Source: Candidatus Saganbacteria bacterium (lineage in GTDB: Bacteria; Margulisbacteria; WOR-1; XYC2-FULL-46-14; WPAF01). From it: 64,000 nucleotides of DNA. The first letter of the stretch is position 1; every line of letters starts with the position of its first letter. Positions 4,083 to 27,491 of this stretch are shown here, piece by piece. The stretch spans positions 60,257-124,256 of the forward strand of contig JACRPM010000006.1 in assembly GCA_016223205.1 (NCBI GenBank), written 5' to 3'. The notes under the pieces are model-generated. The model was not told where the DNA came from, made no database searches, and worked only from the letters and a program-made list of their open reading frames with translations. Position numbers and translations under genes: made by a program.

Positions 4083-5422
4083 ATGGAGATACGGCACGAA
4101 CAGAATTTAGAGCAGTCCCTCCAGCTTTTGCTTTCGCCAAAGCTTTTGGCCATGCTGCGGGTCCTGGCCCTGCCTTACATCGAAATGGTGGACGAGATCA
4201 AGCGCGAATGCGAGGAAAACCCCCTGCTCGAGGTGGAGCGGGCCGATACCCTGGCCGAATACCTCCGCTACCTGGGTACGGACAAAAAAGCCAAAAAACA
4301 GCTGGACCTGGCCGAATATCCCGGCATGGAAAATGTAAAAGCCGTAGCTCACAACCTCACGGAGCATCTTTTGGAACAACTGAAACTGGTTAACCTTCCA
4401 CCCGGCGTCCTTAAAGCCGGAGAATTCCTCATTGAAAACCTGGAGCCCAATGGTTACCTTAAAAATTATCAAGAGTTGAAGCCGGCAGCGGTAAAAAAAC
4501 TCGAGGTTGATGAAGCGGCGGTCGATCGCGCGCTCTCCGTTATCCAATCCCTTGAACCGGAAGGGGTAGGAGCGCGGGACCTGAAGGAATGCCTGCTCAT
4601 CCAGGTGCGCGAATATAACTTTGAAAGCGAAGAATTGCAGGCTATTTTGACCCGTACCATCGAAAATCATCTCGATGACCTGGCCGACCAGAATTTCGGC
4701 AAGATCGCAAAGGCGCTCAAGATCTCCGAATCCGGCGTGTCCGAGATCGCTAATTACATAAAAGAAAACCTGAATTTTAATCCCGCTTCCGGATTCGCCG
4801 AAGAAGTTCGTCGGATCATCCCTTCTTTCGCCATCGAAACGGACGGTAAAGGGGCGGTTATAGGCACCAATCTCGAAGAGAAATACGGGCCCAAGATCAA
4901 GATCTCGACGGAATATGAAAAGATGCTCAAAGATCCCAAGACCGACGCGAAAACCATTAAATTTCTCAAGGAAAAAATGGAGCGCGTCAAGGACCTGATG
5001 GAGACCATGGCTAGGCGGCAGGGGACCATCGATGAGATCTTGAAGATCATAACCGAGACCCAGCAGGATTTCGTCAAAAAGGGGCCGGCCCACCTTAAGC
5101 CCCTGATGCAGAAAGACCTGGCGGAAATGATCGGGGTGCATCCTTCCACCATCTCCAGGGCGCTAGCGGAAAAATACGTGCAGACCCCGCGGGGGCTTTT
5201 CCCCGCTAAGTTCCTTTGTCCGCGGGAGGTCTCCGGTTCCACTCCGGAGCGTATCCGGTCCATCATGCTTGAAACCATAACCGAAGAAGATAAGCTCCGT
5301 CCCATCTCCGATGAGGAGCTTAAGGAATTGTTAGCTAAAGCGGGAGTGAATATCGAACGCCGCACGGTGGCGGCTTACCGCAAACAGCTGGGGATCTTGC
5401 CGGCCTCCGAGAGGCATAATCT

Positions 5423-5426
<4 letters not shown>
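4083..5426 (+). CDS. rpoN: RNA polymerase sigma-54 factor
   Basis: Q/L-rich region I, 'ENPLLE', 'EPEGVGARDLKECL', 'HPSTISRA', RpoN box 'ERRTVAAYR'. Confidence 0.96.
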
Positions 5427-8065
<2,639 letters not shown>

Positions 8066-10003: not shown

Positions 10004-10007
10004 GGGC

Positions 10008-10036
10008 TTGACAGGGCCGTTTCTAAAATCTATCAT
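10008..10036 (+). promoter_or_regulatory. sigma70 promoter of the AbiE pair
   Basis: TTGACA-17-TATCAT; the ORF-track TTG 'start' is actually the -35 box. Confidence 0.7.
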
Positions 10037-10049
10037 ATATGATAGAAAA

Positions 10050-11337: not shown

Positions 11338-11345
11338 CGTAAAGC

Positions 11346-11385
11346 TTGATTTGACCTACATTATTGTATATACTACATAATTGTA
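11346..11385 (+). promoter_or_regulatory. sigma70 promoter overlapped by two TACA-N4-TGTA operators
   Basis: TTGATT-17-TATACT; TACATTATTGTA at 11357 and TACATAATTGTA at 11374. Confidence 0.7.
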
Positions 11386-12875
11386 TGGGCCTCCAACAAG
11401 ATGTTAAAGTCAAAGTGCTGGTGGATGTTGCGGAAGCGCTGGCCACTTCATTAAACCTCGAAAAAAGTTTGTCTTCCATTTTAAAGATATTGGCGGATAC
11501 GCTTGAAATGCAGAGGGGGACCATTACCCTGGTCGACCCCAAAACCAACGAACTGCACATCGAGATCGCTCACGGATTGACCCAAAAAGAAAAAGAACGG
11601 GGGCGCTATAAGATCGGGGAGGGGATCACCGGCAAGGTGGTGGGATCCGGCCAGGCCATGGTCATCCCCGATATTACGGCCGAGCCGCTGTTCCTCGACC
11701 GCACCCAGGCGCGCCAAAATCTGATGGAAAGAAAATTCGCCTTTCTGTGCGTTCCCATCAAAGCGGGGAACCGGGTGATCGGAGCGCTGTCGGTGGACCA
11801 TCTTTTTAAGGGTGAGATCTCTTACGAAGAAGATGTGAATCTTTTGACCATCATTGCCGCCATGGTAGGGCAGGCGGTGAAGCTGCGGGAGCTGGCCGAA
11901 GCCGAAAATATCAAGCTCCGTCGGGAATTGAGCGGCAAATATAAGTTCGACAATATAGTTTTTTCTTCTCCCCTGATGGAGGCGGTGCTGGATGCCGCGG
12001 TGCAGGTGGCGGAAAGCTCGGCCACGGTGCTTTTGCGCGGGGCTTCGGGCACCGGCAAGGAGCTGATCGCCGCCGCCATCCATTATGCCAGTCCGCGGGC
12101 AAACCGGCCGTTCATCAAAGTGGCCTGCGCGGCTCTCCCGGAAAATCTCCTGGAATCCGAACTGTTCGGCTACGAGCGGGGAGCTTTTACCGGAGCGATG
12201 GAGCGCAAGATCGGCCGTTTCGAGGCGGCCGATACCGGCACCATCTTCCTGGACGAGATCGGGGACCTGACCCCCTCCACCCAGGTCAAGCTCTTGCGGG
12301 TACTGCAGGAGCGGGAATTCAACCGGTTGGGAGGCAATCAGACCATCAAAGTGGATGTGCGGGTCATCTGCGCCACGCACCGGGACCTGGAAAAAATGGT
12401 CAAAGAAAATAAGTTCCGCGAAGACCTTTTTTACCGCATCAATGTTTTTCCCGTCAAACTGCCGCTGTTATGCGACCGCAAGGAAGACATACCCCTGCTG
12501 GCCGATCATTTTATCGGAAAATACAACAAGCTTAACAAGAAGAAGATCAAAGGCCTTACCCGGGCCGCCCTCGATCGCTTGCTGGCTTACGACTGGCCGG
12601 GTAACGTAAGGGAGCTTGAGAACGCGATTGAGCGGGCGGTGGTGCTCTGCCGGAGAGACCTTATCGGACCGCCGGAGCTGCCGGCTGGTCTTTCGTCCCG
12701 GATAGAGGTGGAGACCCCGGCCGTAGGCGCCACCCTTCCAGAGGTGGTGGCGGCGGTCGAGAAACAGCGTATCGAAGAAGCTTTAGCCAAATATAAATCC
12801 CAAAGAAAAGCGGCCAAAGCGCTGGGCCTTACCGAACGGATACTGGGCTACAAAGTCAAAAAGTATAAATTATGA
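11385..12875 (+). CDS. NifA-like sigma54 enhancer-binding protein (GAF-AAA+-HTH)
   Basis: GAF '[12 protein letters not shown]...EPLFLDRT', [15 protein letters not shown]-terminal HTH; start moved to ATG 11385 downstream of the promoter. Confidence 0.9.
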
Positions 12876-14446
12876 AACTCGCGCTGGCACAGATCAATCC
12901 CACGGTCGGAGACCTGCCCGGCAACACCCGTAAGATCATGGATTTTATTTCCCGGGCAAGGGAGCAGGAAGCCGACCTGGTAGTTTTTCCGGAACTGGCT
13001 ATAACCGGCTATCCCCCCGAAGACCTGTTGCTTAAACCGCAGTTTATCTCCGACAACTTGGCCTCCCTTAAGGAGATCGTTAAATTCAGCAAAGGGATCG
13101 CCGTTTACCTCGGATTCGTCGATCGGGACCGGAAAGGCATCTATAACGCGGGGGCCTTTATCGAGAACGGCCGCCTGAAAAAAATTTATCACAAGATCAA
13201 TCTGCCCAATTATGCGGTCTTTGACGAGAAAAGGTATTTCCTGCCGGGCGAAACACCCGCGGTAATCAATAAGATCGGATTGGGTATCTGCGAGGATATC
13301 TGGGTCAAAGGCGGGCCGTACCTGGCGGAAGTAAAATTGGGCGCCAAGCTAATACTCAATATCAACGCTTCTCCCTATCACGAAGGCAAGATAAAGGACC
13401 GACAAAAACTGCTAAGTAAACGTGCGCGCGAAAGCCGCACCCCGCTGGTCTATGTCAATATGGTCGGCGGGCAGGATGAGCTGGTTTTCGACGGCGGCAG
13501 TATGATGTTTAATGGGCAAGGGCGGCTTTTGGCCGCGGCCCGGCAATACGAAGAAGAACTGCTGCTTTGCCATCTTGGCCAGGCGCCCATTAAGGCCGAA
13601 TGGCTCGAGGGCGAGGCCGAGGTCTATGAAGCATTAAAGCTGGGCGTTAAGGATTACGTCAACAAGAACGGTTTTCGGGACGTGTATATCGGAGTTTCGG
13701 GAGGGATCGATTCGGCGCTGACCTTGGCTATTGCCGCCGATGCCCTGGGCAAGGGCCGGGTGCACGCGGTCTTTATGCCTTCCAAGTTCTCATCCGAGTT
13801 GAGCCGTAAGGACGCGCGGCAAGTCGCGAAGAACCTGGGGGTGGAGTTCTCCGAGATCCCGATCGATAAGATTTTTGAGGAATATCTGGCCAACCTGGCT
13901 CCGTCCTTTGGCGGACGGGAACCGAACATCGCTGAAGAAAATCTGCAGGCCCGCATCCGGGGCAACACCCTGATGGCGCTTTCCAATAAATTCGGGCGGC
14001 TGGTGTTGACCACCGGCAACAAGTCCGAGACCTCCACCGGCTATTGCACCCTCTACGGCGACATGGCCGGGGGATTTAATGTCTTAAAAGACGTTCCCAA
14101 ACTGTTGGTCTACCGGCTGGCAAACTGGAGAAACGCCGAGAAAGCGGTGATCCCGGAATCCACCATCACGCGTCCGCCCACGGCAGAACTTAAAGCCGAC
14201 CAGACCGACCAGGACACCCTGCCTCCTTACGAAGCGCTCGATCCCATCATGCAGGCCTATGTGGAGGAGAACCTGGGAGTGAAAGAGATCGCGGCCCGGG
14301 GATTCGATGAGGAGACGGTCAAAAAGATCGTTTCACTGATAGATCGTTCGGAATACAAGCGCCGCCAGGCCCCGCCCGGCCCCCGCATCAGCCCCCGCGC
14401 CTTCGGCAAGGACTGGCGCGTGCCCATCACCAACGGCTATCGCTGA
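12872..14446 (+). CDS. nadE: Glutamine-dependent NAD+ synthetase
   Basis: Nitrilase domain (FPELAITGYPPED, ICEDIW) plus SGGIDS, NLQARIR, TGNKSE, EYKRRQAP. Confidence 0.96.
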   Translation: MKLALAQINPTVGDLPGNTRKIMDFISRAREQEADLVVFPELAITGYPPEDLLLKPQFISDNLASLKEIVKFSKGIAVYLGFVDRDRKGIYNAGAFIENGRLKKIYHKINLPNYAVFDEKRYFLPGETPAVINKIGLGICEDIWVKGGPYLAEVKLGAKLILNINASPYHEGKIKDRQKLLSKRARESRTPLVYVNMVGGQDELVFDGGSMMFNGQGRLLAAARQYEEELLLCHLGQAPIKAEWLEGEAEVYEALKLGVKDYVNKNGFRDVYIGVSGGIDSALTLAIAADALGKGRVHAVFMPSKFSSELSRKDARQVAKNLGVEFSEIPIDKIFEEYLANLAPSFGGREPNIAEENLQARIRGNTLMALSNKFGRLVLTTGNKSETSTGYCTLYGDMAGGFNVLKDVPKLLVYRLANWRNAEKAVIPESTITRPPTAELKADQTDQDTLPPYEALDPIMQAYVEENLGVKEIAARGFDEETVKKIVSLIDRSEYKRRQAPPGPRISPRAFGKDWRVPITNGYR

Positions 14447-14516
14447 TCAATTTCGTAGATAAAATCCGTCAATTTATACAATATTGTAGAACCTCGCTCG
14501 TGGCGCAGGGATTGCT
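14446..14516 (+). promoter_or_regulatory. sigma54 promoter 1 with paired upstream activator boxes
   Basis: TGGCGCAGGGATTGCT at 14501; TCA-N4-CGT at 14447 and ACA-N4-TGT at 14478. Confidence 0.8.
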
Positions 14517-14553
14517 ATTGCTTTGTGTCCGCGCAGTTTAGAGGAGGGCTAAA

Positions 14554-15903
14554 ATGGATATAGCAAGTTTAGGCGCATCAATAAATATGGTTTGGCTGCT
14601 GGTCACCGGTTTCCTGGTCATGTTCATGCAGGCGGGTTTCGCCCTGGTCGAAGTCGGTATGACGCGGATCAAGAATGCCAATCACACCATGCTGATGAAC
14701 ATGATGATCTACGGCATCGGCATCCTCGGCTTCTTTTTAGTGGGATTTGGTTTGATGTTTGGCGGGGTGGGCGCGCTTCCCACACTGGGCGTGGACGGTT
14801 CGGTCTTGAGCCGTGAATTCACCGTTAACCTCTTCGGCAAAAGCTTTGGGCTTTTCGGCTTGACCGGATTTGCCCTTAGCGGCATTACCAGCATGGGCGT
14901 GATCGGCTTCTTCCTCTTCCAGCTGGTTTTTATGGACACGACCGCGACCATCCCAACGGGGGCCATGGCGGAGAGATGGAAATGGCTGGCTTTTGTCATT
15001 TACGGATTTTTTGTTTCGGCGATCCTTTATCCGCTTTACGGCAACTGGGTCTGGGGCGGGGGATGGCTTTCACAACTGGGCGCCAACTTCGGCTGGGGCC
15101 ATGGGCTGGTCGATTTTGCCGGTTCATCGGTCGTCCACATGGTCGGGGGGGTCTGCGCAATGGCTGGAGCTTTGGTGATCGGGGCGAGGGTCGGAAAGTT
15201 CAGGAAAGACGGGACTCCCGTGGCTATTCCAGGCCACAATATCCCCATGGCGATCCTGGGAACTTTTATCCTGGCTTTCGGCTGGTTCGGTTTCAATCCG
15301 GGCAGCACGCTGGCGGGGACCGACCCGCGGATCGCGCTGATTGCGGTAAATACTTTACTGGCTTCCGCTGCCGGAACCTTTGTCGCCATGCTTTATATCT
15401 GGCGGCAGCAGGGGAGGCCCGATCCCGGGATGTGCGCCAACGGAATGCTCGCCGGGCTGGTGGCGATCACCGCCCCCTGCGCATTTGTTTCGCCGCTTTC
15501 GGCCTTGGTTATAGGGGCGATCGCCGGCCTGCTGGTCTGCTGGAGCGTCTGGTTCATTGAATGGAAAATGAAGATCGACGATCCGGTCGGGGCTATCTCG
15601 GTCCATGGGGTGAACGGATTCTGGGGGATATTAAGCCTGGGGATCTTTGCCGACGGAACCTATGGCGACGGATTAAACGGGGTAACTGGAATGGTGACCG
15701 GATTATTGCACGGCGACCCAAGGCAATTCCTGGCCCAACTGATCGGCGGGCTAATTTGCTTTGCCTTTGTGTTTGGGCTGTCATTTATTTTCTTTAAAGC
15801 GCAGGATCTGATAATGGGGATCCGGGTCTCTCCGGAAGAAGAAGTGCTTGGTCTGGACCGCGCAGAAATGACCTCGGTAGCTTATCCGCGGGACATAATG
15901 TAA
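14554..15903 (+). CDS. amtB: Ammonium transporter (copy 1, divergent clade)
   Basis: MQAGFALVE, DFAGSSVVH, GWFGFNPGS, DDPVGAISVHG; twin His intact. Confidence 0.96.
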   Translation: MDIASLGASINMVWLLVTGFLVMFMQAGFALVEVGMTRIKNANHTMLMNMMIYGIGILGFFLVGFGLMFGGVGALPTLGVDGSVLSREFTVNLFGKSFGLFGLTGFALSGITSMGVIGFFLFQLVFMDTTATIPTGAMAERWKWLAFVIYGFFVSAILYPLYGNWVWGGGWLSQLGANFGWGHGLVDFAGSSVVHMVGGVCAMAGALVIGARVGKFRKDGTPVAIPGHNIPMAILGTFILAFGWFGFNPGSTLAGTDPRIALIAVNTLLASAAGTFVAMLYIWRQQGRPDPGMCANGMLAGLVAITAPCAFVSPLSALVIGAIAGLLVCWSVWFIEWKMKIDDPVGAISVHGVNGFWGILSLGIFADGTYGDGLNGVTGMVTGLLHGDPRQFLAQLIGGLICFAFVFGLSFIFFKAQDLIMGIRVSPEEEVLGLDRAEMTSVAYPRDIM

Positions 15904-15917
15904 GGAGGGCGAGGATA

Positions 15918-16259
15918 ATGAAAAAGATCGAATGCTTCATTCGGCCGGAGAAATTGGAAGAGGTAAAGGCCGCCCTGATAAAGGCCGGAGTGGTGGGTTT
16001 GACCATATCGGAGGTTTATGGCGCCGGGCGGCAAAAAGGATTTGTAGAAAAGTATCGCGTCAGCGAGGTAACGGTCAATCTTCTGCCGAAGATCAAGGTT
16101 GAATTGTACCTTAAGGACCAGGAAACAGATAAGATCTTGCAGATCCTGGCTGCCGCCGCCAAAACCGGTGAAGTGGGCGATGGCAAGATCTTCGTGCTGG
16201 ACGGGGTTGAGCAGGCCTTAAGGATCCGAACCGGGGAAAGAAATGAAGCGGCGCTTTGA
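15918..16259 (+). CDS. glnK: PII nitrogen regulator (copy 1)
   Basis: MKKIECFIRPEKL, GRQKG, TGEVGDGKIF, RIRTGE. Confidence 0.95.
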   Translation: MKKIECFIRPEKLEEVKAALIKAGVVGLTISEVYGAGRQKGFVEKYRVSEVTVNLLPKIKVELYLKDQETDKILQILAAAAKTGEVGDGKIFVLDGVEQALRIRTGERNEAAL

Positions 16260-16265
16260 ATTCCC

Positions 16266-16346
16266 TTCAAATTTGTATTCGCGGGCGTAAGCTTTTTACA
16301 TTTTTGTCGGTTTTGTATGGAGCTTACTCGTGGCGCAGGAATTGCT
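16266..16346 (+). promoter_or_regulatory. sigma54 promoter 2 with paired upstream activator boxes
   Basis: TGGCGCAGGAATTGCT at 16331; TCA-N4-TGT at 16267 and ACA-N4-TGT at 16298. Confidence 0.8.
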
Positions 16347-16360
16347 TATAACCCGGTATA

Positions 16361-16480
16361 ATGCATATTTTATTTTATTCGATAGTAATGATGGTGGCGA
16401 TCGGGGTCCCGGTATTGGGTATTGTTTTGAACAGTAAAAAGACAAAGGAGACTAATCATGAAGAACAACTGTTTGTGTAA
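16361..16480 (+). CDS. Candidate 39 aa single-pass membrane protein (not in ORF track)
   Basis: [39 protein letters not shown]; starts a few nt after the expected sigma54 TSS; hydrophobic stretch followed by basic residues. Confidence 0.55.
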   Translation: MHILFYSIVMMVAIGVPVLGIVLNSKKTKETNHEEQLFV

Positions 16481-17120
16481 GATCGCATTATTACTGATCG
16501 CGCTGGCGGGGGTTAGTTATGCCACTCCCTCCACCAATATCTGGAACCCCTCGACCGACATCCAGGCCGCGGGGACAATGCATCTGGGGATCGATAATTA
16601 CTTTACATTAGATGGCCCGGCCCAAGGGGGGTACGCTTTCCCGACCGATACCGGTTTAACCTACGGCGTTTTTCCCGGATTGGAGATCGGTCTCGATGTT
16701 TTTCTCCCCCAAACGGCGCCCTTTGTGGTTAACGCCAAATATGGGGTGGGTGAGAGCGGAATGCTGCCGGCCCTGGCGATAGGCGGATTCGGTTTCGGCA
16801 CCCAACTGGGCGTGACCGACCAGAATGTGATCTATGGAGTGGGTTCCAAGATTTTCCCGGTTATGGGAAGGATAACGGCGGGCTATTTTACCGGCAACGG
16901 AGCTAAAGATAACAGCGGGCTGATATTGGCCTGGGACAAGTCGCTTAACGACAAGCTCTGGGTCTCGATCGATTACGCCGGGTCCAAATCGGCGCTGGGA
17001 GCGACCTTCTACGGCTTTTCCTGGCTCTTCGCGCCTAACACTTCGATCATTTTTGCTTATGGCACTTATAACAGCGGAGCCCAGCCGACCGTAACCACGC
17101 AACTGGATATAAATATATGA
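16458..17120 (+). CDS. Exported protein, probable outer-membrane beta-barrel/porin
   Basis: Signal peptide, Gly/aromatic alternating strands, C-terminal 'TTQLDINI'; stop overlaps amtB start. Confidence 0.6.
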
Positions 17121-18334
17121 TAAATAGCGGCGATACGGCCTGGGTTTTGATCTCGACGGCCCTGGTGATCCTGATGACTCCGGCGCTGGCTTTCTTTTAC
17201 GCCGGGATGGTGCGGAGGAAAAATGTCCTTTCCACCATCATGTTATCGGTGGCGATCTTGGCTTTGATCTCGGTGCAATGGGTGCTCTTCGGCTATACCC
17301 TCGCTTTCGGCCCGGACCATGCGGGATTGTTCGGCGGGCTGAACTGGCTGGGGTTAAACGGGGTGGGCCAGACACCTTATCCGGGTTACGCGGCCACCAT
17401 TCCGCACCTGGCTTTTATGGTCTTTCAGCTGGCTTTTGCGGTGATCACTCCGGCGCTCATTACCGGAGCATTTGTGGAAAGGATAAATTTTCCGGGATTC
17501 CTGCTGTTTACCCTGTTATGGAGCACTTTTATTTATGATCCGGTGGCTCACTGGGTTTGGGGGATAGGGGGATGGTTGAGAAATCTAGGCGCATTGGATT
17601 TTGCCGGAGGGACCGTGGTGCATATTACTGCCGGGGTCTCCGCCCTGGCCCTGGCCTTGATCATCGGGCGGCGCAAGGGGTACGGAAAGTTCCCCATGGA
17701 GCCGTCCAATATCCCTTTCACCATATTGGGAGCTTTCCTCCTGTGGTTCGGCTGGTTCGGTTTTAACGGCGGCTCGGCCTTAAGTTCCGGCGGGTTGGCA
17801 ACCTCCGCTTTGGTGGTGACCAATACCGCAGCGGCCGCGGCGGCCCTAACCTGGATGCTGATGAGCTGGATCCATAAACGCCCGAGCGTGCTGGGGCTGG
17901 CGACCGGCGCGGTGGTGGGATTGGTGGCGATAACTCCAGCCTCGGGATATGTCAGCCCGCTTTCCGCACTGGTGATCGGGGCGGTGGCGGCGGTGGTCTC
18001 ATATTATTCCATATTGATTCGCGTCAAGAGCGGCCTGGACGATTCGCTGGATGTTTTTGCCTGCCATGGGATGGGGGGAATAACCGGGGCTCTTTTAACG
18101 GGGGTCTTTGCCGATAAGGCGATAAATTCCGCCGGGGCCAACGGTTTGCTCTTCGGCAATCCCCAGCAGCTGCTGATCCAGGCGATCGCGGTCCTGGTGG
18201 TGGCGGTCTTTTCTTTTACGGTCAGTTACATATTGGGGAGAGTCATCGATGCGGTCTTCTCGCTGCGCGCCCGGTCCGAAGAAGAGGAGATCGGCCTGGA
18301 CATAACCCAGCACGGGGAAGCGGCCTACAGCTAA
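17117..18334 (+). CDS. amtB: Ammonium transporter (copy 2)
   Basis: [44 protein letters not shown]. Confidence 0.97.
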
Positions 18335-18678
18335 TGGGCTTTAAAAAAATAGAGGCAATAATCCGGACCGAGAAGCTGGATGAGGTGAGGATGGCGGTGG
18401 AGGGGGTGGGGATCGTCGGCATGACGGTGACCGAAGTAAAAGGTAGAGGCAGCCAGAAAGGGATACTTCTGGAATGGCGGGCGGGCGAATATCGGGTGGA
18501 ATTCTTGCCCAAATTAAAGCTGGAGCTGGTAGTGCATGATGTGGATCTGGAGAAGGCGGTCGAAGCGCTGTCTGCTGCCGCCCGCACCGGAAAAGTCGGG
18601 GACGGAAAGATCTTTATATATTCCATGGAAGATATTGTGCGCGTCCGAACCGGCGAACGCGGGAGGCCCGCAGTTTAA
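18334..18678 (+). CDS. glnK: PII nitrogen regulator (copy 2)
   Basis: KKIEAIIR, T-loop 'WRAGEYRVEFLPK', TGKVGDGKIF. Confidence 0.95.
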   Translation: MGFKKIEAIIRTEKLDEVRMAVEGVGIVGMTVTEVKGRGSQKGILLEWRAGEYRVEFLPKLKLELVVHDVDLEKAVEALSAAARTGKVGDGKIFIYSMEDIVRVRTGERGRPAV

Positions 18679-18687
18679 GTTGATGTG

Positions 18688-18728
18688 AGGGGGGGGCCAC
18701 CTCCTAATCGTGGTACGGCCCCCCTTTT
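18688..18728 (+). terminator. Rho-independent terminator
   Basis: GGGGGGCC...GGCCCCCC followed by TTTT. Confidence 0.7.
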
Positions 18729-18841
18729 AACAAAATTGTATAAATCCGAAGTTGTTTCGTACATTTTTGTCATAATGTCGAACCTTGAAAATTAAGTATT
18801 TATCGGCAGTCCGCTAAAAATTATTTGGCGGGAGAATTGCT
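18729..18841 (+). promoter_or_regulatory. sigma54 promoter 3 with paired upstream activator boxes
   Basis: TGGCGGGAGAATTGCT at 18826; ACA-N4-TGT at 18730 and 18761. Confidence 0.75.
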
Positions 18842-18865
18842 TGTCTACCCTCAACGATTAGGAGG

Positions 18866-20086
18866 ATGACAATGATCAATTCCGGTGATACCGCCTGGGT
18901 TCTGATCTCCACGGCTTTAGTTATCTTAATGACCCCCGCTTTAGGTTTCTTTTATGCAGGCCTGGTCAGGAAAAAGAACGTGCTCTCGACCATCATGCTC
19001 TCTGTGGCCCTGCTGGCGCTGATCTCCCTGCAATGGGCGTTTTTCGGTTACTCCCTGGCCTTTGGAGCGGACCGGGGCGGCTTGATCGGGGGATTGAACT
19101 GGCTGGGACTTAATGGAGTAGGACAGGCTCCGAATGCGGCTTACGCGCCGACCATTCCACATCTGGCATTCATGGTCTTCCAGCTGGCTTTTGCGGTCAT
19201 TACTCCGGCGCTGATCACCGGGGCGTTCGTAGAGAGGATCAATTTTTCCGGATTCCTGGTCTTTACTTTTCTCTGGGCGACCTTTATTTACGATCCCTTG
19301 GCCCACTGGGTTTGGGGTGTAGGCGGTTGGCTTAGGACACTGGGGGCGCTGGATTTTGCCGGCGGAGCGGTGGTCCACATCAGCGCGGGATTGGCTGCGC
19401 TGGCAGTAGCCCTGGTCATCGGTAAACGCAAGGATTATGGAAAGATCCCGATGGAACCCTCCAACATACCGTTTACGGTACTGGGAGCGTTCCTGCTCTG
19501 GTTCGGTTGGTTCGGATTTAACGGGGGCTCGGCTTTGAGCAGCGGCGGATTGGCGGCCTCGGCGCTGGTGGCGACCAATCTGGCGGGGGCGGCGGCGGCC
19601 ATCACCTGGATGGTGATCAGCTGGATCCACAAAAGGCCCAATCTTTTAGGTTTGGCGACCGGCGGCATTGCCGGATTGGCGGCGGTAACCCCGGCTTCGG
19701 GGTTTATCAGCCCGCTTTCGGCCATGGCGATCGGGATGGTGGCGGCCATTTTCTGCTATTATATGATCATCTTTCGGGTGCGGGTGGGGCTGGACGAATC
19801 GCTCGATGTTTTTGCCTGCCATGGGATAGGAGGGTTGTGGGGCGTGCTGGCGGTGGGCTTGTTCGCCGAAAAGGCGGTGAACGCCGCCGGGGCCGATGGG
19901 CTCTTTTTCGGCAATCCGGGGCAGCTTGGAGCCCAGCTGATCATGGCCGCGTCGGTGGCGCTGTTCTCTTTTATTGCCACCTATATTTTGGCCAAAGTGG
20001 TGGACGCCATTTTTGTGCTGCGGGTAAAAAAGAACGAAGAGGAGATCGGGCTGGATATTTCCCAGCACGGGGAAACGGTGTATTAA
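18866..20086 (+). CDS. amtB: Ammonium transporter (copy 3, paralog of copy 2)
   Basis: Same motifs and high visible identity to 17117..18334. Confidence 0.97.
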   Translation: MTMINSGDTAWVLISTALVILMTPALGFFYAGLVRKKNVLSTIMLSVALLALISLQWAFFGYSLAFGADRGGLIGGLNWLGLNGVGQAPNAAYAPTIPHLAFMVFQLAFAVITPALITGAFVERINFSGFLVFTFLWATFIYDPLAHWVWGVGGWLRTLGALDFAGGAVVHISAGLAALAVALVIGKRKDYGKIPMEPSNIPFTVLGAFLLWFGWFGFNGGSALSSGGLAASALVATNLAGAAAAITWMVISWIHKRPNLLGLATGGIAGLAAVTPASGFISPLSAMAIGMVAAIFCYYMIIFRVRVGLDESLDVFACHGIGGLWGVLAVGLFAEKAVNAAGADGLFFGNPGQLGAQLIMAASVALFSFIATYILAKVVDAIFVLRVKKNEEEIGLDISQHGETVY

Positions 20087-20087
20087 T

Positions 20088-20426
20088 ATGAAAAAGATCG
20101 AAGCGATCATTAGGATCGAGAAATTGGACGAGGTCCGGGTAGCTCTGGAAAAGGAAGGGTTTGTGGGGATGACCGTGACCGAGATCAAGGGCCGGGGATC
20201 CCAGAAAGGAGTAATGCTGGAATGGCGGGCCGGTGAGTACCGGGTGGAGTTTTTGCCCAAGCTGAAGATCGAGCTGGTGGTTAACGGGGATCGGACCGAA
20301 GCCGCTATCCGGATCATCGCCGAGGCGGCCCGCACCGGAGCGATAGGGGACGGGAAGATATTCATCTATCCGGTGGAAGACGTGGTGCGCATCCGGACCG
20401 GGGAACGGGGGATTGAGGCGGTTTAA
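20088..20426 (+). CDS. glnK: PII nitrogen regulator (copy 3, paralog of copy 2)
   Basis: MKKIEAIIR, WRAGEYRVEFLPK, TGAIGDGKIF. Confidence 0.95.
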   Translation: MKKIEAIIRIEKLDEVRVALEKEGFVGMTVTEIKGRGSQKGVMLEWRAGEYRVEFLPKLKIELVVNGDRTEAAIRIIAEAARTGAIGDGKIFIYPVEDVVRIRTGERGIEAV

Positions 20427-20468
20427 ATTTGTGGTATAATAAAATCGAAAGAAAAGGAGTGAAGTAAA

Positions 20469-21803
20469 ATGATAACCAAAGAAGAAGTGATGAAGCAGGT
20501 AAAAGACAATGGAGTGGAGTTCATTCGTTTGTGGTTCACGGATATCAACGGGATACTGAAAAGTTTCGCCATCGGCCCCGATGAGCTGGAGGGCGCCTTA
20601 ACCCAGGGAATGGGATTTGACGGCTCCTCTATCACCGGTTTCCAATCCATCGAAGAATCCGACATGATCGCCATGCCCGATCCCAATACTTTCGCCATCC
20701 TGCCCTGGCGGCCGGAAGACAAGCCGGTAGCCCGCATGATCGCCGACATCCTCCAGCCGGCGGCCGGCAAGCATAATCCCTACGAGGGCGACCCCCGGTA
20801 CGTTTTAAAAAGAGCGCTGGCCAAAATGCAGAAAATGGGCTTCGACCATTTTTATGTCGGCCCGGAACTTGAATATTTTTATTTCAAGGATTCCAACGGC
20901 ACCGAGATCCTCGATCAGGGGGGCTATTTTGACCTGACCCCGCTCGATATGGCCAGCAACCTGCGCCGCGAAACGGTTTTCGCCTTGAGGAAGCTGGGCA
21001 TCGTGGTCGAATACTCTCACCACGAAGTCGCCCCTTCCCAGCACGAGATCGACATGCGCTACAACGATGCCCTGCCGATGGCCGACAACACCGTTACCTA
21101 TCGTCTGACGGTCAAAGAGATCGCCTCCAAGAACGGCGTCTATGCGACCTTTATGCCGAAACCGATCTTCGGCCAGAACGGGAGCGGGATGCACTGCCAC
21201 CAATCTTTGTTCAAAGGCAAAGTTAACGCTTTCTACGACGCCAATGACAAATACAATCTCTCGCCGATCGGCAAATCCTATATTGCCGGCATCCTGAAGC
21301 ACGCGCCGGAAATGGCTTCGATCCTGGCCCCGTGGGTCAACTCCTACAAGCGCTTGGTCCCGGGTTACGAAGCTCCGGTCTATATCGCCTGGTCGAGAAG
21401 GAACCGCTCGGCGCTGGTCCGCGTCCCCGGCTATCAGCCGGGCAAAGAAGCGGCGACCCGCATGGAGCTCCGCTGCCCCGATCCTTCGGGCAACCCATAC
21501 CTCCAGTTCGCCGTCATGCTCCAGGCCGGCCTCAAAGGGATCGAAGAAGGGTACAAACTGCCGGATCCGATGGAATTTAACCTCTTCCACCTGTCCGAAG
21601 AGGAACGGCAGGAGAAGGGCATCAAGTCGCTGCCGGCCAGTTTAGGCGAGGCCATTGTGATCACCGAAAAGAGCGCCTTCATGAAAGAAGCCCTGGGCGA
21701 CCATTGCTTCAACCGCTATATCTCTATCAAGAAGCAGGAGTGGGACGAGTTCCGGATCCAGGTGACAGAATACGAGCTAAAAAAATATTTGCCGATTCTG
21801 TAG
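20469..21803 (+). CDS. glnA: Glutamine synthetase type I (GSI-alpha size)
   Basis: FDGSSI, HHEVAPSQHEI, ATFMPKP, NGSGMH, SYKRLVPGYEAP, NRSA. Confidence 0.97.
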   Translation: MITKEEVMKQVKDNGVEFIRLWFTDINGILKSFAIGPDELEGALTQGMGFDGSSITGFQSIEESDMIAMPDPNTFAILPWRPEDKPVARMIADILQPAAGKHNPYEGDPRYVLKRALAKMQKMGFDHFYVGPELEYFYFKDSNGTEILDQGGYFDLTPLDMASNLRRETVFALRKLGIVVEYSHHEVAPSQHEIDMRYNDALPMADNTVTYRLTVKEIASKNGVYATFMPKPIFGQNGSGMHCHQSLFKGKVNAFYDANDKYNLSPIGKSYIAGILKHAPEMASILAPWVNSYKRLVPGYEAPVYIAWSRRNRSALVRVPGYQPGKEAATRMELRCPDPSGNPYLQFAVMLQAGLKGIEEGYKLPDPMEFNLFHLSEEERQEKGIKSLPASLGEAIVITEKSAFMKEALGDHCFNRYISIKKQEWDEFRIQVTEYELKKYLPIL

Positions 21804-21807
21804 TAAA

Positions 21808-21826
21808 ACCCTATAATTGATAGGGT
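21808..21826. promoter_or_regulatory. Inverted repeat containing TATAAT immediately before the gltB ATG
   Basis: ACCCTAT-AATTG-ATAGGGT then ATG. Confidence 0.45.
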
Positions 21827-24800
21827 ATGCATAAGCCAGAGGGTTTATACGACCCAGGATTCGAGCACGACGCTTGCGGAGTGGGGTTCGTGGCGGATAT
21901 CAACGGCCAAAAGACCCACGCTATCGTCCGGCAGGGGATCAAGGTACTGGAACGTCTCGCTCACCGCGGAGCGGTGGGGGCCGATCCTTTGACCGGCGAC
22001 GGCGCCGGGATCCTGATCCAATTGCCCCACGAATTCCTGGCCAAGGTCTTCCCTAATATAACCCGGCCGGGAAGCTATGGGACCGGAATGATATTTTTCC
22101 CCCGTGAAAAAGAAAAATACCGTCAAGCCAAAGAGATCTTGACCGAAGAGATCGGAAAAGCCGGCCAGAAACTTTTGGGCTGGAGGAAAGTCCCGGTGAA
22201 CGATTCCGGCATCGGGGAGACCGCCCGCAAGACCCAGCCGGAGATCGAACAGGTGTTCATCGGCAAGGGCTCGACCATAAGATCGCCCCTGGAGCTGGAA
22301 AAGATCCTTTACCAGATCCGCCGGGCGACGGAACGCCGGATCGATTCCGAGGGCTTCTATATCACCAATCTTTCCGCGCGAACCATGTCGTATAAAGGCC
22401 TGCTCATGCCCGCCCAGTTGAGCGAGTATTTTCCGGACCTTAATGACCCCGATTTAAAAAGCGCCCTGGCTTTGGTGCATTCGCGTTACAGCACCAACAC
22501 TTTCCCCACCTGGGACCTGTCCCAGCCCTTCCGCTTTTTGGCCCACAACGGCGAGATCAATACCCTGCGGGGGAACATCAACTGGATGAAGGCCCGGGGG
22601 ATCGACGTGATAGTCCCGGGAGGCAGCGATTCCGCCGCCCTGGATAACGCCTTTGAATTGCTGGTGCTCTCCGGCCGGTCGCTTCCCCACGCCATGATGA
22701 TGCTCATCCCGGCCGCCTGGGAGCAGAACCGGGCTTTACCCCAGAAGCTAAGGGATTTCTACAAATATCACGCCTGTTTTATGGAACCCTGGGACGGACC
22801 GGCGGCGGTGGCCTTTACCGACGGGACCAGGATCGGGGCGGTGCTGGACCGCAACGGCTTGCGGCCCGCGCGTTTTGTGGTCACCAAACAAGATCTGGTG
22901 GTCATGGCTTCGGAAGTGGGGGTCCTGGATATTCCCCCCCAGGATATTATCTCTTCCGGAAGATTGGAGCCGGGTAAAATATTCTTTATCGATACGGAGG
23001 AAAAAAGGATCATCCACGATGAGGAGATCAAAGATAAGATGGCGGCTCGCGTTCCCTACAGCGCCTGGATCAAAGACAACCTGGTGGAATTTGATAAACT
23101 CACTACCCCCTCTGTCCCTTCGGGCCATCTCCCCCTTGCCAAGGGGGAGATAGAGAGGGGGTTCAAAATCTTCGGCTATACGCGCGAAGACATGAAATTC
23201 ATCCTCCAGCCGATGGCGGAGGAAGGCAAAGAGCCGGTGGGCTCCATGGGCAACGATACGCCTCCGGCAGTGCTCTCGCAAAAACCGCAGCTGCTCTACA
23301 ATTATTTTAAACAGCTTTTTGCCCAGGTCACCAATCCGGCCATCGATCCCATCCGCGAAGAACTGGTGATGAGCCTGGACAGTTTCGTGGGGGCGCAGAA
23401 GAACATACTGGAAGAGACGCCGGAGCACTGCCGAAAGATCAGGATCAAGACCCCGGTGCTTTTTAATGACGAATTGGAAAAGATCCGGCAGATCGACGAA
23501 AAGGGATTCAAGGCCCAGACCCTCTCCCTGCTGTTTGACGCCGAACAGCCGGACGATTTTATGAGGAAACTGGACGAGGTCTGTTCAGCGGCGGAAGAAG
23601 CGGTAAAGAACGGTTTTACCTTTATAATCTTGAGCGACCGCGGGGTGAACCGGGAATTGGCCGCGCTTCCGGCGCTTTTGGCCTGCGGCGCGGTGCATCA
23701 TCATCTCATAAGAGCAGCGCTGCGCACCCGGGTGGGGATCGTGGTCGAGAGCGGCGAGCCGCGCGAAGTCCACCACTTTGCCCTGTTGTTTGGGTTTGGC
23801 GCGGATTGTATCAATCCCTATCTGGCCTATGAAGCGGTCGAGGAACTGGGCCTTAAGATCGAAAATTACCGCCACGCGGTCGAGAAGGGGATATTAAAGA
23901 TCCTTTCCAAGATGGGCATCTCCACCCTCAACAGCTATCGGGGGGCGCAGATCTTCGAGGCGCTGGGCCTGCACGAGGAAGTTATTGAAAAATGCTTTAC
24001 CGGGACCCCCTCCCGCATTGGGGGGGTAACTTTGGATGGGATCGCGCAGGAAACCATTAGGCGGCATCAAGCGGCGCACCAAAATGGGGATCTGCTGCCG
24101 ACCGGGGGACTTTACCAGTGGAAAAAAGACGGGGAGTTCCATTTGTGGAATCCCGACAGCATCGCGGCCCTGCAAGATTCGACCAGGAAGAACGATTTCA
24201 CCAGATTTTGTGATTTTTCCCGGCTGATCGACGACCAATCGAAAAACCCCGCCACCTTGCGCGGACTTTTAAAATTCAAACCGACCAAACCCATCCCGGT
24301 TGATGAAGTCGAGCCGATCTCCGAGATCTGCAAGCGCTTTGCCACCGGGGCCATGAGCTACGGCTCGATCAGCCGCGGCGCCCACGAAACCATTGCCCGG
24401 GCCTTGAACCGCATCGGCGGCCGGTCCAACACCGGCGAGGGAGGCGAAGATCCGCAGCGTTTTAAGGACGATCGCCGCTCGGCCGTCAAACAGGTGGCCT
24501 CGGGCCGCTTTGGGGTGAACACCAATTATCTGGTCAACGCCGATGAGATCCAGATCAAGATCGCCCAGGGAGCCAAGCCCGGAGAAGGCGGGCAGCTGCC
24601 CGGCCACAAGGTGAGCGCCACCATTGCGGCCACCCGCTTCACCACCCCCGGGGTGACCTTGATCTCTCCGCCTCCGCATCACGATATTTATTCGATCGAA
24701 GACCTGGCCCAGCTGATCTTTGACCTAAAGAACGTCAATCCGCGCGCCCGCATCTCGGTGAAACTGGTCTCGGAAGCGGGGGTAGGGACAGTGGCGGCGG

Positions 24801-26182
24801 GAGTGGCCAAGGGCCACGCGGACATGATCTTGATCTCGGGCGGCGACGGCGGCACCGGGGCTTCTCCCTTAAGCTCCATCAAGCACGCCGGGCTTCCCTG
24901 GGAATTGGGCTTATCCGAAACCCACCAAACGCTGGTTTTAAACGATCTAAGAAGCCGGGTGCGCCTGCAGACCGACGGCCAAATGCGAACCGGCAGGGAT
25001 GTGGTGATAGCCGCGATCCTGGGAGCCGAGGAATTCGGCTTTGCGACCGCGCCTTTGATCGTGATGGGCTGTGTAATGCTGCGCCACTGCCACCTGAACA
25101 ACTGTTCGGTAGGGGTGGCGACCCAAGACGAGCTGTTGGAGAGCAGGTTTAAAGGTGGGGTGGAGCAGGTCGTCAATTATTTTACCTTTGTAGCCCGGCA
25201 GGCGCGCGAGATCCTGGCGGAGCTGGGGATTAAGTCCATCGATGAATTGATCGGCCGAACCGATCTTTTAGAGGCCAAAGCGAAAGGCCTCGATTTTTCC
25301 CGTATTCTTTATCGCCCCGAGGCGCCGGAAAGTGTCGGCCGTCGCCAAACCAGGGCGCAGGATCATCAGATCAGCAAAGTGCTGGATCGCCGCCTCATTG
25401 AGCTGGCCCAGCCGGCGCTCTGCTTGCGCGAGCCGGTGAGGGAAGAAATCGAGATCAAAAATTTTAACCGCACCGCCGGCGCGATGCTTAGCGGCGAGGT
25501 CTGCAAGGTCTTCGGCGAAGAGGGGCTTCTCCCCGATACCATTCATTTTATATTCAAGGGAGAAGCCGGCCAGAGCTTCGGCGCCTGGCTGGCCCGGGGG
25601 ATAACTTTTGAACTGGAAGGGATGGCCAACGATTACGTGGGCAAGGGCGTCTCGGGCGGCAAGATCATTATCTATCCTAACCGCCTAACCACTTATCCGC
25701 CCGGATCCAATATCATTATCGGCAACACCGCCTTTTACGGGGCGATCTCCGGCGAGGCCTACATCCGGGGCGTGGCCGGAGAGCGTTTTTGCATCCGGAA
25801 CTCCGGCTTGAATGCGGTGGTAGAAGGGGTAGGCGACCACGGCTGTGAATATATGACCGGCGGCCGGGTGGTGATACTGGGAAAGACCGGGAGGAATTTT
25901 GGAGCGGGAATGTCGGGCGGGATCGCCTATGTTTACGATGAAGATCGGACCTTTAAATCCCGCTGTAATCCGGGAATGGTTGAACTGCTTAAGCTTACCG
26001 ACGAAGATCGCTCGTTGCTTAAGGAATTGCTGGCCAAACATCATACTTATACCGGAAGCGAAAGGGCTAAAAGCGCCGAAATCGAACGTTTCGTAAAAGT
26101 TATGCCGGTCGAATATCGTAAGGTTTTGGAACGCAAAGCGGCCGAAGAAAAGACCGCAGAGGCGGAGGTTTCCGATGGCTAA
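21827..26182 (+). CDS. gltB: Glutamate synthase large subunit
   Basis: DACGVGF, HSRYSTNT, HNGEINT, EPWDGPA, QGAKPGEGGQLPG, 3Fe-4S cysteines, GXGXG domain. Confidence 0.98.
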   Translation: MHKPEGLYDPGFEHDACGVGFVADINGQKTHAIVRQGIKVLERLAHRGAVGADPLTGDGAGILIQLPHEFLAKVFPNITRPGSYGTGMIFFPREKEKYRQAKEILTEEIGKAGQKLLGWRKVPVNDSGIGETARKTQPEIEQVFIGKGSTIRSPLELEKILYQIRRATERRIDSEGFYITNLSARTMSYKGLLMPAQLSEYFPDLNDPDLKSALALVHSRYSTNTFPTWDLSQPFRFLAHNGEINTLRGNINWMKARGIDVIVPGGSDSAALDNAFELLVLSGRSLPHAMMMLIPAAWEQNRALPQKLRDFYKYHACFMEPWDGPAAVAFTDGTRIGAVLDRNGLRPARFVVTKQDLVVMASEVGVLDIPPQDIISSGRLEPGKIFFIDTEEKRIIHDEEIKDKMAARVPYSAWIKDNLVEFDKLTTPSVPSGHLPLAKGEIERGFKIFGYTREDMKFILQPMAEEGKEPVGSMGNDTPPAVLSQKPQLLYNYFKQLFAQVTNPAIDPIREELVMSLDSFVGAQKNILEETPEHCRKIRIKTPVLFNDELEKIRQIDEKGFKAQTLSLLFDAEQPDDFMRKLDEVCSAAEEAVKNGFTFIILSDRGVNRELAALPALLACGAVHHHLIRAALRTRVGIVVESGEPREVHHFALLFGFGADCINPYLAYEAVEELGLKIENYRHAVEKGILKILSKMGISTLNSYRGAQIFEALGLHEEVIEKCFTGTPSRIGGVTLDGIAQETIRRHQAAHQNGDLLPTGGLYQWKKDGEFHLWNPDSIAALQDSTRKNDFTRFCDFSRLIDDQSKNPATLRGLLKFKPTKPIPVDEVEPISEICKRFATGAMSYGSISRGAHETIARALNRIGGRSNTGEGGEDPQRFKDDRRSAVKQVASGRFGVNTNYLVNADEIQIKIAQGAKPGEGGQLPGHKVSATIAATRFTTPGVTLISPPPHHDIYSIEDLAQLIFDLKNVNPRARISVKLVSEAGVGTVAAGVAKGHADMILISGGDGGTGASPLSSIKHAGLPWELGLSETHQTLVLNDLRSRVRLQTDGQMRTGRDVVIAAILGAEEFGFATAPLIVMGCVMLRHCHLNNCSVGVATQDELLESRFKGGVEQVVNYFTFVARQAREILAELGIKSIDELIGRTDLLEAKAKGLDFSRILYRPEAPESVGRRQTRAQDHQISKVLDRRLIELAQPALCLREPVREEIEIKNFNRTAGAMLSGEVCKVFGEEGLLPDTIHFIFKGEAGQSFGAWLARGITFELEGMANDYVGKGVSGGKIIIYPNRLTTYPPGSNIIIGNTAFYGAISGEAYIRGVAGERFCIRNSGLNAVVEGVGDHGCEYMTGGRVVILGKTGRNFGAGMSGGIAYVYDEDRTFKSRCNPGMVELLKLTDEDRSLLKELLAKHHTYTGSERAKSAEIERFVKVMPVEYRKVLERKAAEEKTAEAEVSDG
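23105..23162. repeat. Branched palindromic element in-frame within gltB
   Basis: ACCCCCTCT-GTCCCTTCGGGCC-ATCTCCCCCTTGCCAAGGGGGAGAT-AG-AGAGGGGGT; second copy at 54695. Confidence 0.85.
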
Positions 26183-27491
26183 AGACCTGCGGGCTTTTCT
26201 AAAGATCAAGCGGGTGGAAGAAGAACACCGCCCCGTGAATGAGAGGATAAAAGACCATCAGCCGGTCTTTATACTGCGCGACGAAGACCGGTCCAAAGAA
26301 CAATCCTCGCGCTGTATGGACTGCGGGACTCCCTTTTGCCACTGGGGCTGTCCGGTCGGAAATTATATTCCTGAATGGAACGAAGCGGCTGCGGCGGGCC
26401 ACTGGGAAAAAGCGTATGATCTGCTGGCGGCCGCCAATAACCTGCCCGAGGTCACCGGCCGGGTTTGTCCGGCGCCCTGTGAATTCGCCTGCGTGCTGGC
26501 TATTAACGACGATGCGGTCACTATCCGGCTGAACGAGCTGGCAATCATTGAAAAGGCCTTTAAGGAGGGCTTGGTCAAACCCCGCCCGCCTAAAACCCGC
26601 ACCGGAAAAAAAGTCGCGGTAATCGGTTCGGGCCCCGCGGGCCTCTCCTGCGCCGCGGAGCTTAACCGCGCCGGACACCAGGTTGTGGTCTTGGAGAGGG
26701 ACGATCGGCCCGGCGGGATCATGCGTTACGGCATCCCCGATTTTAAGCTCGAGAAAGAAGCGCTCGACCGCCGGATCGAGATCTGGAAAAAGGAAGGGAT
26801 CGAATTCCGCACCGGCGCAAATGTGGACAAACTGCCGGATGGATTTGACGCGACGGTTTTGGCCGGAGGGTCGCGCCGTCCCCGCGATCTGAAGATCGAG
26901 GGGAGAGAGCTTAAGGGTATCCATTTTGCGATGGAATACCTGGCAAAAAGATCGGTCAGCGCGGAAGGAAAGAAGGTGGTGGTGATCGGCGGGGGAGACA
27001 CGGGATCCGATTGTGTGGGCTGGGCCAACCGGCAAGGGGCGCTAAGCGTAGTGCAGATCGAACTTTTACCGCAGCCGGGCCTCTGCCGGCCGGAATTAAA
27101 TCCCTGGCCGACCTATCCTTTGATCCTTAAGACCACCACCAGCCATGAGGAGGGGGTCAAGCGGCTCTGGTCGGTTAAAACCGAGGGTTTCCTCGGTCAG
27201 GCAGGGATGATCAAGGGGTTGCGCTGTGTGAGATCGGATACTGGGGAGAAAATTGAGATCGAGGCCGACCTAGCGCTCTTAGCGCTGGGTTTTCTTGGGC
27301 CCGAAACCGAACTGCTCAACCGCATCGGGGTCGAACTGGACGCGCGGGGTAATGTTAAAACCGACGGGAACTATCAAACCTCGATAAAAAATGTCTTTTC
27401 GGCCGGGGACATGAGGCGGGGGCAGTCCTTGATCGTCTGGGCGATTTACGAGGGGCGGCAGGCGGCGAGCGCGATCAACTCTTGTATTTAG
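26175..27491 (+). CDS. gltD: Glutamate synthase small subunit
   Basis: RCMDCGTPFC, GRVCPAPCE, GSGPAG, GGGDTGSDC, GDMRRGQSL. Confidence 0.96.
   Translation: MAKDLRAFLKIKRVEEEHRPVNERIKDHQPVFILRDEDRSKEQSSRCMDCGTPFCHWGCPVGNYIPEWNEAAAAGHWEKAYDLLAAANNLPEVTGRVCPAPCEFACVLAINDDAVTIRLNELAIIEKAFKEGLVKPRPPKTRTGKKVAVIGSGPAGLSCAAELNRAGHQVVVLERDDRPGGIMRYGIPDFKLEKEALDRRIEIWKKEGIEFRTGANVDKLPDGFDATVLAGGSRRPRDLKIEGRELKGIHFAMEYLAKRSVSAEGKKVVVIGGGDTGSDCVGWANRQGALSVVQIELLPQPGLCRPELNPWPTYPLILKTTTSHEEGVKRLWSVKTEGFLGQAGMIKGLRCVRSDTGEKIEIEADLALLALGFLGPETELLNRIGVELDARGNVKTDGNYQTSIKNVFSAGDMRRGQSLIVWAIYEGRQAASAINSCI

Follow-up and report, generated by a model that had tools for sequence, protein, structure and literature searches.

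A 64,000-nucleotide stretch of DNA from Candidatus Saganbacteria, hereafter the window (C3:60257-124256 of a 1.57-Mb metagenome-assembled genome that is 92% complete), carries three ammonium-transporter operons next to the gene of a NifA-like sigma54 activator of 496 amino acids (11385..12875, + strand), in which Pfam recognizes GAF, AAA+ and helix-turn-helix (HTH) domains. This protein is probably a nitrogen-limitation regulator, an analogue of NtrC that would act through the palindrome TACA-N4-TGTA and repress its own gene. The proposed link between palindrome and activator draws on the boxes found on the activator's own promoter and at the sigma54 promoters, their geometry, their co-occurrence with the activator across genomes, a DNA-binding domain that is unique in the genome, the adjacency to amtB, and the precedent of AnfA.

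Three sigma54-type (-24/-12) promoters were located on the forward strand by sequence reading and pattern search, namely P1 in front of amtB1 (14501-14516, TGGCGC-N5-TTGCT, TGGCGCAGGGATTGCT), P2 (16331-16346, TGGCGCAGGAATTGCT) and P3 (18826-18841, TGGCGG-N5-TTGCT, TGGCGGGAGAATTGCT). The string TGGCG-N5-ATTGCT occurs three times in the window against 0.05 expected, a number reached by none of 100 shuffles. The box core ACAWWWWTGT occurs six times (11358, 11375, 14478, 16298, 18730 and 18761) against 0.51 expected, again reached in 0/100 shuffles; genome-wide it is found 26 times, and the six lie in the cluster's four promoter regions. Thus, the promoters and boxes of the first-pass annotation were recovered at their coordinates, and in numbers far above chance.

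By using a weight matrix built from relatives, the boxes could be scored in bits. The proximal box of P1, TACAATATTGTA (14477..14488), is a perfect palindrome that outscores, with 20.5 bits, every other site in the genome, and its putative distal partner ATCAATTTCGTA (14446..14457; core TCAATTTCGT at 14447) is weak, with 5.2 bits. For P2 the distal box TTCAAATTTGTA (16266..16277; core TCAAATTTGT at 16267) scored 15.7 bits and the proximal box TACATTTTTGTC (16297..16308) 13.7 bits; for P3 the values were 15.3 bits for the distal box AACAAAATTGTA (18729..18740) and 10.9 bits for the proximal box TACATTTTTGTC (18760..18771). The distal boxes at 14447 and 16267 match a relaxed pattern only, which is present 622 times in the genome. 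Consequently, the claim that all three promoters carry paired boxes holds for P2, P3 and the proximal site of P1, and is weakened at the distal site of P1. As described beforehand, the box starts are 31 bp apart in all three pairs, and the distance from the start of the proximal box to the T of TGG is 23, 33 and 65 bp at P1, P2 and P3, respectively. If the GG is placed at -25/-24, the proximal centres fall near -45, -55 and -87, which bears out the unusual closeness of these putative enhancers to their promoters.

In a matrix scan of the whole genome, the top three sites were all in this cluster. Seven box pairs 15-45 bp apart were obtained, of which three stand at three of the cluster's four promoters and the other four are weak or of the CACA...TGTG type; the amtB1 pair was missed because its distal box is too weak. 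Other good single boxes, one over the -35 element of a pilT-like gene (C9:2891) and several within genes on contigs C11, C13, C14 and C15, were read as chance occurrences. A different arrangement was noticed in an intergenic region of contig C2 (C2:44041-44072), where the palindromes CACATTATTGTG and CACAATAATGTG, 22 bp apart, share the box core and differ in their flanks; this pair may be the operator of another regulator.

The activator gene itself is preceded by a sigma70-like promoter (11346..11374, + strand, TTGATT-17-TATACT), which matched 9/12 positions in a consensus scan that overall did not rise above its shuffles. Two perfect TACA-N4-TGTA boxes lie over it, in agreement with the first-pass annotation: box 1, TACATTATTGTA (11357..11368, 19.6 bits), within the promoter spacer, and box 2, TACATAATTGTA (11374..11385, 19.7 bits), which begins on the final base of the -10 hexamer and ends with the A of the start codon at 11385. 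The layout recurs in orthologues as a TTGACA-like hexamer, a box, a TATAAT-like hexamer, a box and the ATG. Among 63 distinct upstream regions, taken from orthologues with 28-100% GAF identity in several classes of the phylum, at least one box (at least 11 bits, within 130 bp of the start) was present in 54, and two boxes in 41. Such conservation suggests that the activator represses its own gene. In 32 of the 40 orthologues with at least 67% GAF identity a box begins 10-15 nt 5' of the ATG and therefore leaves no space for a ribosome-binding site; the activator mRNA would have almost no leader. This near-leaderless and putatively self-repressed gene is, together with the very close and helically phased enhancers, what appears most unusual in the system.

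The protein had been described as NifA-like, and the closest family and structure both agree with this. Its domains comprise GAF (PF01590), Sigma54_activat (PF00158, 242 bits) with the GAFTGA motif, an AAA lid and a Fis-type HTH. Across the aligned orthologues G266, F268 and T269 are invariant and A267 is nearly so. As in bacterial enhancer-binding proteins generally, a GAFTGA-bearing AAA+ domain was found together with a sigma54 gene and with -24/-12 promoters at the proposed targets. The best curated family was NifA (TIGR01817); the score of 497.4 bits falls short of its cut-off (528.85), and the match extends over positions 2-435 of the 534 in the NifA model, whose C-terminal part stays uncovered. 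The NtrC model (TIGR01818) matched only the AAA+ part, the N-terminus being a GAF domain and not a receiver. Considering the whole protein, the best match in the PDB was the NifA chain 9qq6_C, and the GAF domain (residues 6-179) was closest to that of Aquifex Nlh1 (4g3k, E 3e-27).

A structure model with a mean pLDDT of 84 places the GAF domain at residues 1-147, one helix at 148-185, the AAA+ domain at 196-421 and, after a floppy linker, a three-helix DNA-binding domain at 451-493. The helix linking GAF and AAA+ is shorter by one heptad (7 residues) than in all 51 other aligned orthologues; the site of the loss (window 11895-11910, activator residues about 171-175) is spanned without differences by contigs of three sequencing runs, one of which comes from a different sample in the same study. 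Neither a paralogue nor a mini-copy of the DNA-binding domain was found in the genome, where the next tblastn match had an E value of 0.045 and both receiver-type activators remained unmatched. Compared with plasmids, this domain matched two Peribacillus records at 44% identity, and no NifA. The nif genes, whose search had been suggested by the first-pass annotation, were also looked for. NifD/K (PF00148) gave no match in the 92%-complete genome, and the NifH search was unspecific: the PF00142 match was rejected as a nitrogenase, as it covers only a 36-residue P-loop and the model matches all 14 control genomes.

Activator orthologues with 55-76% identity were found in 34 of 40 relatives of the class, and a match at E<=1e-120 in 70 of the 121 genomes by which the phylum was sampled. 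In many relatives the activator gene shares a contig with amtB and adjoins it. The sigma54 promoters are conserved upstream of the orthologous operons, and the 12-bp palindrome recurs phylum-wide, in pairs, upstream of the sigma54 promoters of porin-amtB-glnK, amtB-glnK, glnA and type III glutamine synthetase genes. From 164 distinct sigma54-pattern matches in Margulisiibacteriota loci, 38 have at least two boxes within 180 bp upstream, 15 have one and 111 have none. With the threshold at 10.5 bits, 47 of 55 box-bearing matches precede a porin-like gene (15), amtB (27) or glnA (5); one of the other eight is spurious, inside an activator locus, and seven stand before other or unread genes. At six further sites of the pattern search, seven box-bearing promoters were read, before type III glutamine synthetase (4), a permease-PII fusion (1), amtB (1) and an unannotated ORF (1). 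In one locus (L198:3300-5165, genome G013), a box-bearing sigma54 promoter is followed by the gene of a 621-aa amino-acid permease fused to a C-terminal PII domain.

To count pairs across genomes, a strict pattern was used (ACAWWWWTGT-N19-23-ACAWWWWTGT), which misses degenerate distal boxes. Strict pairs were detected in 47 of the 121 genomes, and a reversed-pattern control in one. Pairs and activator (E<=1e-120) were found together in 39 genomes, pairs only in 8, the activator only in 31 and neither in 43; the 31 are no surprise, because the strict pattern overlooks degenerate distal boxes. Three complete genomes that have no activator (G042, G047 and G056) carry amtB-glnK with neither a box nor a sigma54 pattern upstream, and a fourth complete genome (G058), with one box upstream of amtB-glnK, holds a truncated activator homologue.

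These data bear directly on whether the boxes could be chance features of AT-rich intergenic DNA. The core is short, with six fixed bases, and its relaxed form is common, as the 622 genomic occurrences attest. Nevertheless, the six cores against 0.51 expected in the window, the concentration of six of the 26 genomic sites in four short intergenic regions, and a motif kept across the phylum in sequence, pairing and phase, with the control pattern in 1 genome against 47, make such an origin vanishingly improbable; as far as sequence statistics allow, it is refuted.

Regarding geometry, the conservation of motif and paired spacing in the promoters of relatives, proposed as a check of the first annotation, was confirmed. 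The 38 pairs are mostly 30-32 bp apart, with distances of 30 (15 pairs), 31 (7), 32 (6), 29 (1), 40-41 (3) and 17-21 bp (6). The proximal boxes start, relative to TGG, at -30..-33 (12 promoters), -41..-45 (18), -52/-54 (2), -64..-66 (10), -73/-74 (2) and -88..-91 (4), in classes about 11 bp apart. The best period was 11.2 bp (R 0.74 over 49 promoters, a value reached by 0/500 uniform nulls), these figures being descriptive and not probabilities, as the promoters share descent. The -23 class, represented by P1 of the window, was seen nowhere else. The activator of the window, the sole one of 52 aligned that lacks the linker heptad, is also the one that would drive the closest site.

Several observations weigh against the view that the activator works through these boxes as an NtrC analogue. 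The distal box at 14447 is doubtful, because it attains only 5.2 bits on the relatives' matrix, and a proximal site near -45, nearer than textbook enhancers, is also compatible with repression. If only the 21 distinct positions are considered, R falls to 0.57, which is reached by 13 of 500 nulls; the loci are, moreover, related by descent, and the phylum-wide counts given above overstate the independent support. Eight genomes have strict pairs and no activator at E<=1e-120. Five of them were searched again: in three a homologue was detected with an E value of about 1e-108 to 1e-110, of which the first is full length, the second truncated at a contig end and the third aligned from residue 125 on, whereas two have AAA+ matches only, and no box of at least 12.5 bits was present in the 1.5-kb flanks examined in the five. 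Full-length homologues with 43-49% identity from Phycisphaerae and other phyla (L071-L088) have no boxes, and no amtB within 5 kb; L086 is the exception in this set, being a close relative with 73-75% identity. Finally, a literature search on sigma54 in Margulisbacteria found no paper.

In a rival reading, the boxes are real operators and belong to another regulator, which could be the NtrC-like protein encoded at 5423-6778, the other activator of the receiver type, on contig C5, or some repressor. NtrC-type proteins are established as controlling amtB-glnK and glnA in enterobacteria, the boxes were assigned here from sequence, and the eight genomes mentioned above combine strict pairs with no close match to the GAF activator. 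However, in 54 of the 63 orthologue loci the boxes sit on the promoter of the GAF activator itself, and no box of at least 9 bits occurs near the rpoN and NtrC-like genes (window 355 to 10044). The HTH of the GAF activator is without a look-alike in the genome, and, across the loci read, these promoters are not regularly accompanied by the gene of any other regulator. This makes control by another protein very unlikely.

Another possibility is that the GAF activator does bind, but that the close sites, such as those of P1 and P2 with centres near -45 to -55, serve chiefly as brakes: a dimer unable to activate would be held against the closed complex, and activation would proceed only from the distal site or from solution. 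Sites so close are atypical for sigma54 enhancers, and the same protein would also repress its own promoter. On the other hand, the close classes at -30..-33 and -41..-45 are the commonest in the phylum (12 and 18 of 53 promoters) and share their helical phase with the farther ones, a phasing that fits a face-of-helix contact requirement better than simple occlusion; the boxes, in addition, stay clear of the -24 element, on its upstream side. Taken together, a role mainly as brakes appears quite unlikely, and activation by the GAF protein from the paired boxes is preferred.

In the circuit that we propose, dimers of the activator would bind the 12-bp palindrome, and two dyads about three helical turns apart would bring both dimers to one face of the DNA, thereby nucleating the active AAA+ ring in register with the closed sigma54 complex. 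Activation would then switch on amtB1-glnK1, porin-amtB2-glnK2 and amtB3-glnK3-glnA-gltBD, the GAF domain and the signalling helix keeping the ring off until nitrogen becomes scarce. At the activator's own sigma70-type promoter, the two sites, 17 bp apart, would cover the spacer and the start point, so that the activator would hold down its own production together with that of nadE, presumably encoded on the same transcript. The signal perceived by the GAF domain is putatively a metabolite such as 2-oxoglutarate or a PII protein, with the two about evenly balanced. As no GlnD was found in the genome that could uridylylate PII, 2-oxoglutarate could act on the GAF domain directly or through PII.

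A further idea is that, in this phylum, sites butted against the closed complex (proximal dyad near -45 to -65) deliver the ring with little or no DNA looping, that the classes at about 11 bp are the record of a strict face-of-helix rule, and that the length of the linker helix and the enhancer distance were perhaps tuned together; we regard this as speculative and, as a whole, unlikely.

Concerning the extent of the regulon, the earlier proposal of a NifA-like protein serving as an ammonium-scavenging regulator is in keeping with boxes that track both the activator's promoter and the ammonium-assimilation promoters, but was drawn too narrowly: the third operon continues into glnA-gltB-gltD, and the regulon therefore covers assimilation as well as uptake. 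To call it a complete sigma54 regulon is an overstatement, since two further, receiver-type activators and promoters of the TGGCAT-N5-TTGCT class exist in the genome. The cluster is apparently, from the genome-wide scans, the complete regulon of this one activator. The second promoter class, without boxes, was observed outside the window, for example at C3:271638, C13:44682, C5:34244, C11:77123 and C14:52733, in front of genes that, judged from their first residues only, look like ORF6N/KilA-N-type and 23S-rRNA-intervening-sequence-type; the two receiver-type activators presumably target these promoters. A perfect sigma54-like string, TGGCACACTGTTTGCT, also ends a repeat of about 120 bp with 10 copies in the genome (among them C1:1154, C1:184792, C3:135157, C3:295541, C4:124560, C5:134166, C6:50525, C11:73562 and C14:80475), where it is followed by ATAGAGCC and then by unrelated sequence. 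Possibly, a mobile element ends in this repeat and carries there a promoter that points outwards.

The genes of the cluster are arranged as follows, with rpoN, both activator genes, nadE and the three operons on the forward strand. The single-copy rpoN (4083..5426; Pfam Sigma54_AID/CBD/DBD) encodes sigma54 and overlaps by 4 bp the gene of the receiver-type, NtrC-like activator (5423..6778; Response_reg, Sigma54_activat and HTH_8), one of the two receiver-type members among the three true sigma54 activators in the genome. An AbiEi-like/AbiEii toxin-antitoxin pair (10008-11337) lies directly upstream of the promoter of the GAF activator, and a second AbiEi-like gene adjoins the third sigma54 activator on contig C5. 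The activator gene overlaps by 4 bp nadE, the gene of a glutamine-dependent NAD+ synthase (12872..14446; CN_hydrolase and NAD_synthase; NF010588, 735.9 bits), which suggests a single transcript for both. By Pfam (Ammonium_transp, P-II), amtB1 (14554-15903) and glnK1 (15918-16259) follow P1, while a small porin-like gene (16458-17120), amtB2 (17117-18334) and glnK2 (18334-18678) follow P2. A terminator-like hairpin with a U run (18686..18729; -27 kcal/mol, z -2.8) closes this second operon after glnK2, immediately before the distal box of P3. Behind P3 stand amtB3 (18866-20086), glnK3 (20088-20426), glnA (20469-21803), gltB (21827-26182) and a gltD-like gene (26175-27491), also assigned by Pfam, whose short gaps and overlaps point to one operon (18866..27491).

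Within this third operon, the same consensus scan placed sigma70-like promoters just before glnA (20413-20440, TTGAGG-16-TATAAT with TG) and gltB (21789-21817, TTGCCG-17-TATAAT), which could provide basal expression besides the read-through from P3. The genome has four PII genes in total. An Rfam scan of window positions 10000-28000 gave no match at E<=0.1. The 220-aa product of 16458-17120 has a signal-peptide-like N-terminus and folds, in the model, into a barrel of 12 beta-strands (pLDDT 82); among solved structures it comes closest to small porins of the KdgM/NanC type, VhGalP (8xua_A) and NanC (2wjq). As its gene stands before amtB, behind box-bearing sigma54 promoters, in 15 loci, the protein may form a channel of the outer membrane that is made when nitrogen is limiting.

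The circuit appears to be real and well conserved, yet familiar in kind, and no new principle emerges from it: both the type of site and the control of nitrogen assimilation by GAF-type sigma54 activators have been published before. What it offers is a candidate wiring diagram for nitrogen control in an uncultured groundwater sister lineage of Cyanobacteria, consisting of one sensor-activator, four promoters, a 12-bp operator and a fixed geometry; Cyanobacteria themselves use NtcA and are not known to have sigma54. With this circuit, the AnfA-type dyad would reach beyond the control of nitrogenase into ammonium assimilation in general, and dozens of natural promoter variants become available that may show which distances and helical phases an enhancer can adopt relative to a sigma54 promoter. 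In the literature searched, no paper was found that names TACA-N4-TGTA or ACA-N4-TGT in this context, the motif itself leading to the AnfA paper (PMC7294313) and to an unrelated preprint on Enterococcus, and the search on GAF, amtB, glnK and sigma54 returned nothing on this lineage.

Among known systems, enterobacterial NtrC (NRI) has sites at glnAp2, glnAp1/glnL and glnK-amtB, with paired dimer sites about three helical turns apart, on which the ring is nucleated. The present system resembles it in the proposed sigma54-dependent activation of ammonium transport, PII and glutamine synthetase, in the paired sites and in the putative autorepression over a sigma70 promoter. It differs from NtrC in having no receiver domain and no NtrB-type kinase partner, a GAF domain as sensor, a different operator and sites that are much closer, and from the enterobacterial system as a whole in that no GlnD was found in this genome. 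With NifA proper it shares the three-domain build and the best family and solved-structure matches. Unlike NifA proper, it falls below the TIGR01817 cut-off, and no nifDK was found in its genome; the NifA upstream activating sequence TGT-N10-ACA occurs three times in the window, which is the chance level, and in none of the four promoter regions.

Outside nitrogen fixation, Studholme and others reportedly found, in 2000, that the NifA homologue of Aquifex binds about 100 bp upstream of glnBA. Aquifex aeolicus has two NifA-like homologues, Nlh1 and Nlh2. The nearest GAF domain to that of our activator is the one of Nlh1, and the two systems have in common a host that is not a nitrogen fixer and, in our model, a 38-residue helix (148-185) at the same place. 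In a review, Nlh1 is said to be likely to regulate nitrogen assimilation and to be kept inactive by a signalling helix, of the coiled-coil type, that connects its GAF and AAA+ domains (PMC9866876). Similarly, a GAF-type activator and sigma54 control amtB in Leptospira, where, according to a review, both the transcription of amtB and growth on limiting nitrogen require EbpA and RpoN, with EbpA binding in front of the genes that it controls (PMC12655853). As described there, EbpA is FhlA-like, with two GAF domains, and its regulon includes lipoprotein genes, unlike the system described here (PMC12655853).

Finally, the genes of alternative nitrogenases are controlled by AnfA and VnfA, whose GAF domains contain a cysteine motif (PMC7294313). 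From these, including the proteins of Azotobacter vinelandii, the activator of the window differs in that C122 is the single cysteine within residues 1-180, with no cysteine motif in the GAF domain, and in that no nitrogenase D/K homologue was found in its genome. The site of VnfA is GTAC-N6-GTAC, and AnfA of Rhodobacter capsulatus has two dyads, distal and proximal, at a sigma54 promoter, with the consensus TAC-N6-GTA (PMC7294313). The first-pass annotation had proposed a site different from that of NifA; this stands, given the lack of TGT-N10-ACA at the four promoters, although the site is not unprecedented, being of the TAC-N6-GTA type of AnfA. The activator resembles AnfA in three respects: a GAF-AAA+-HTH protein of the NifA group, a palindrome TACA-N4-TGTA that fits TAC-N6-GTA, and the combination of distal and proximal dyads at a sigma54 promoter.

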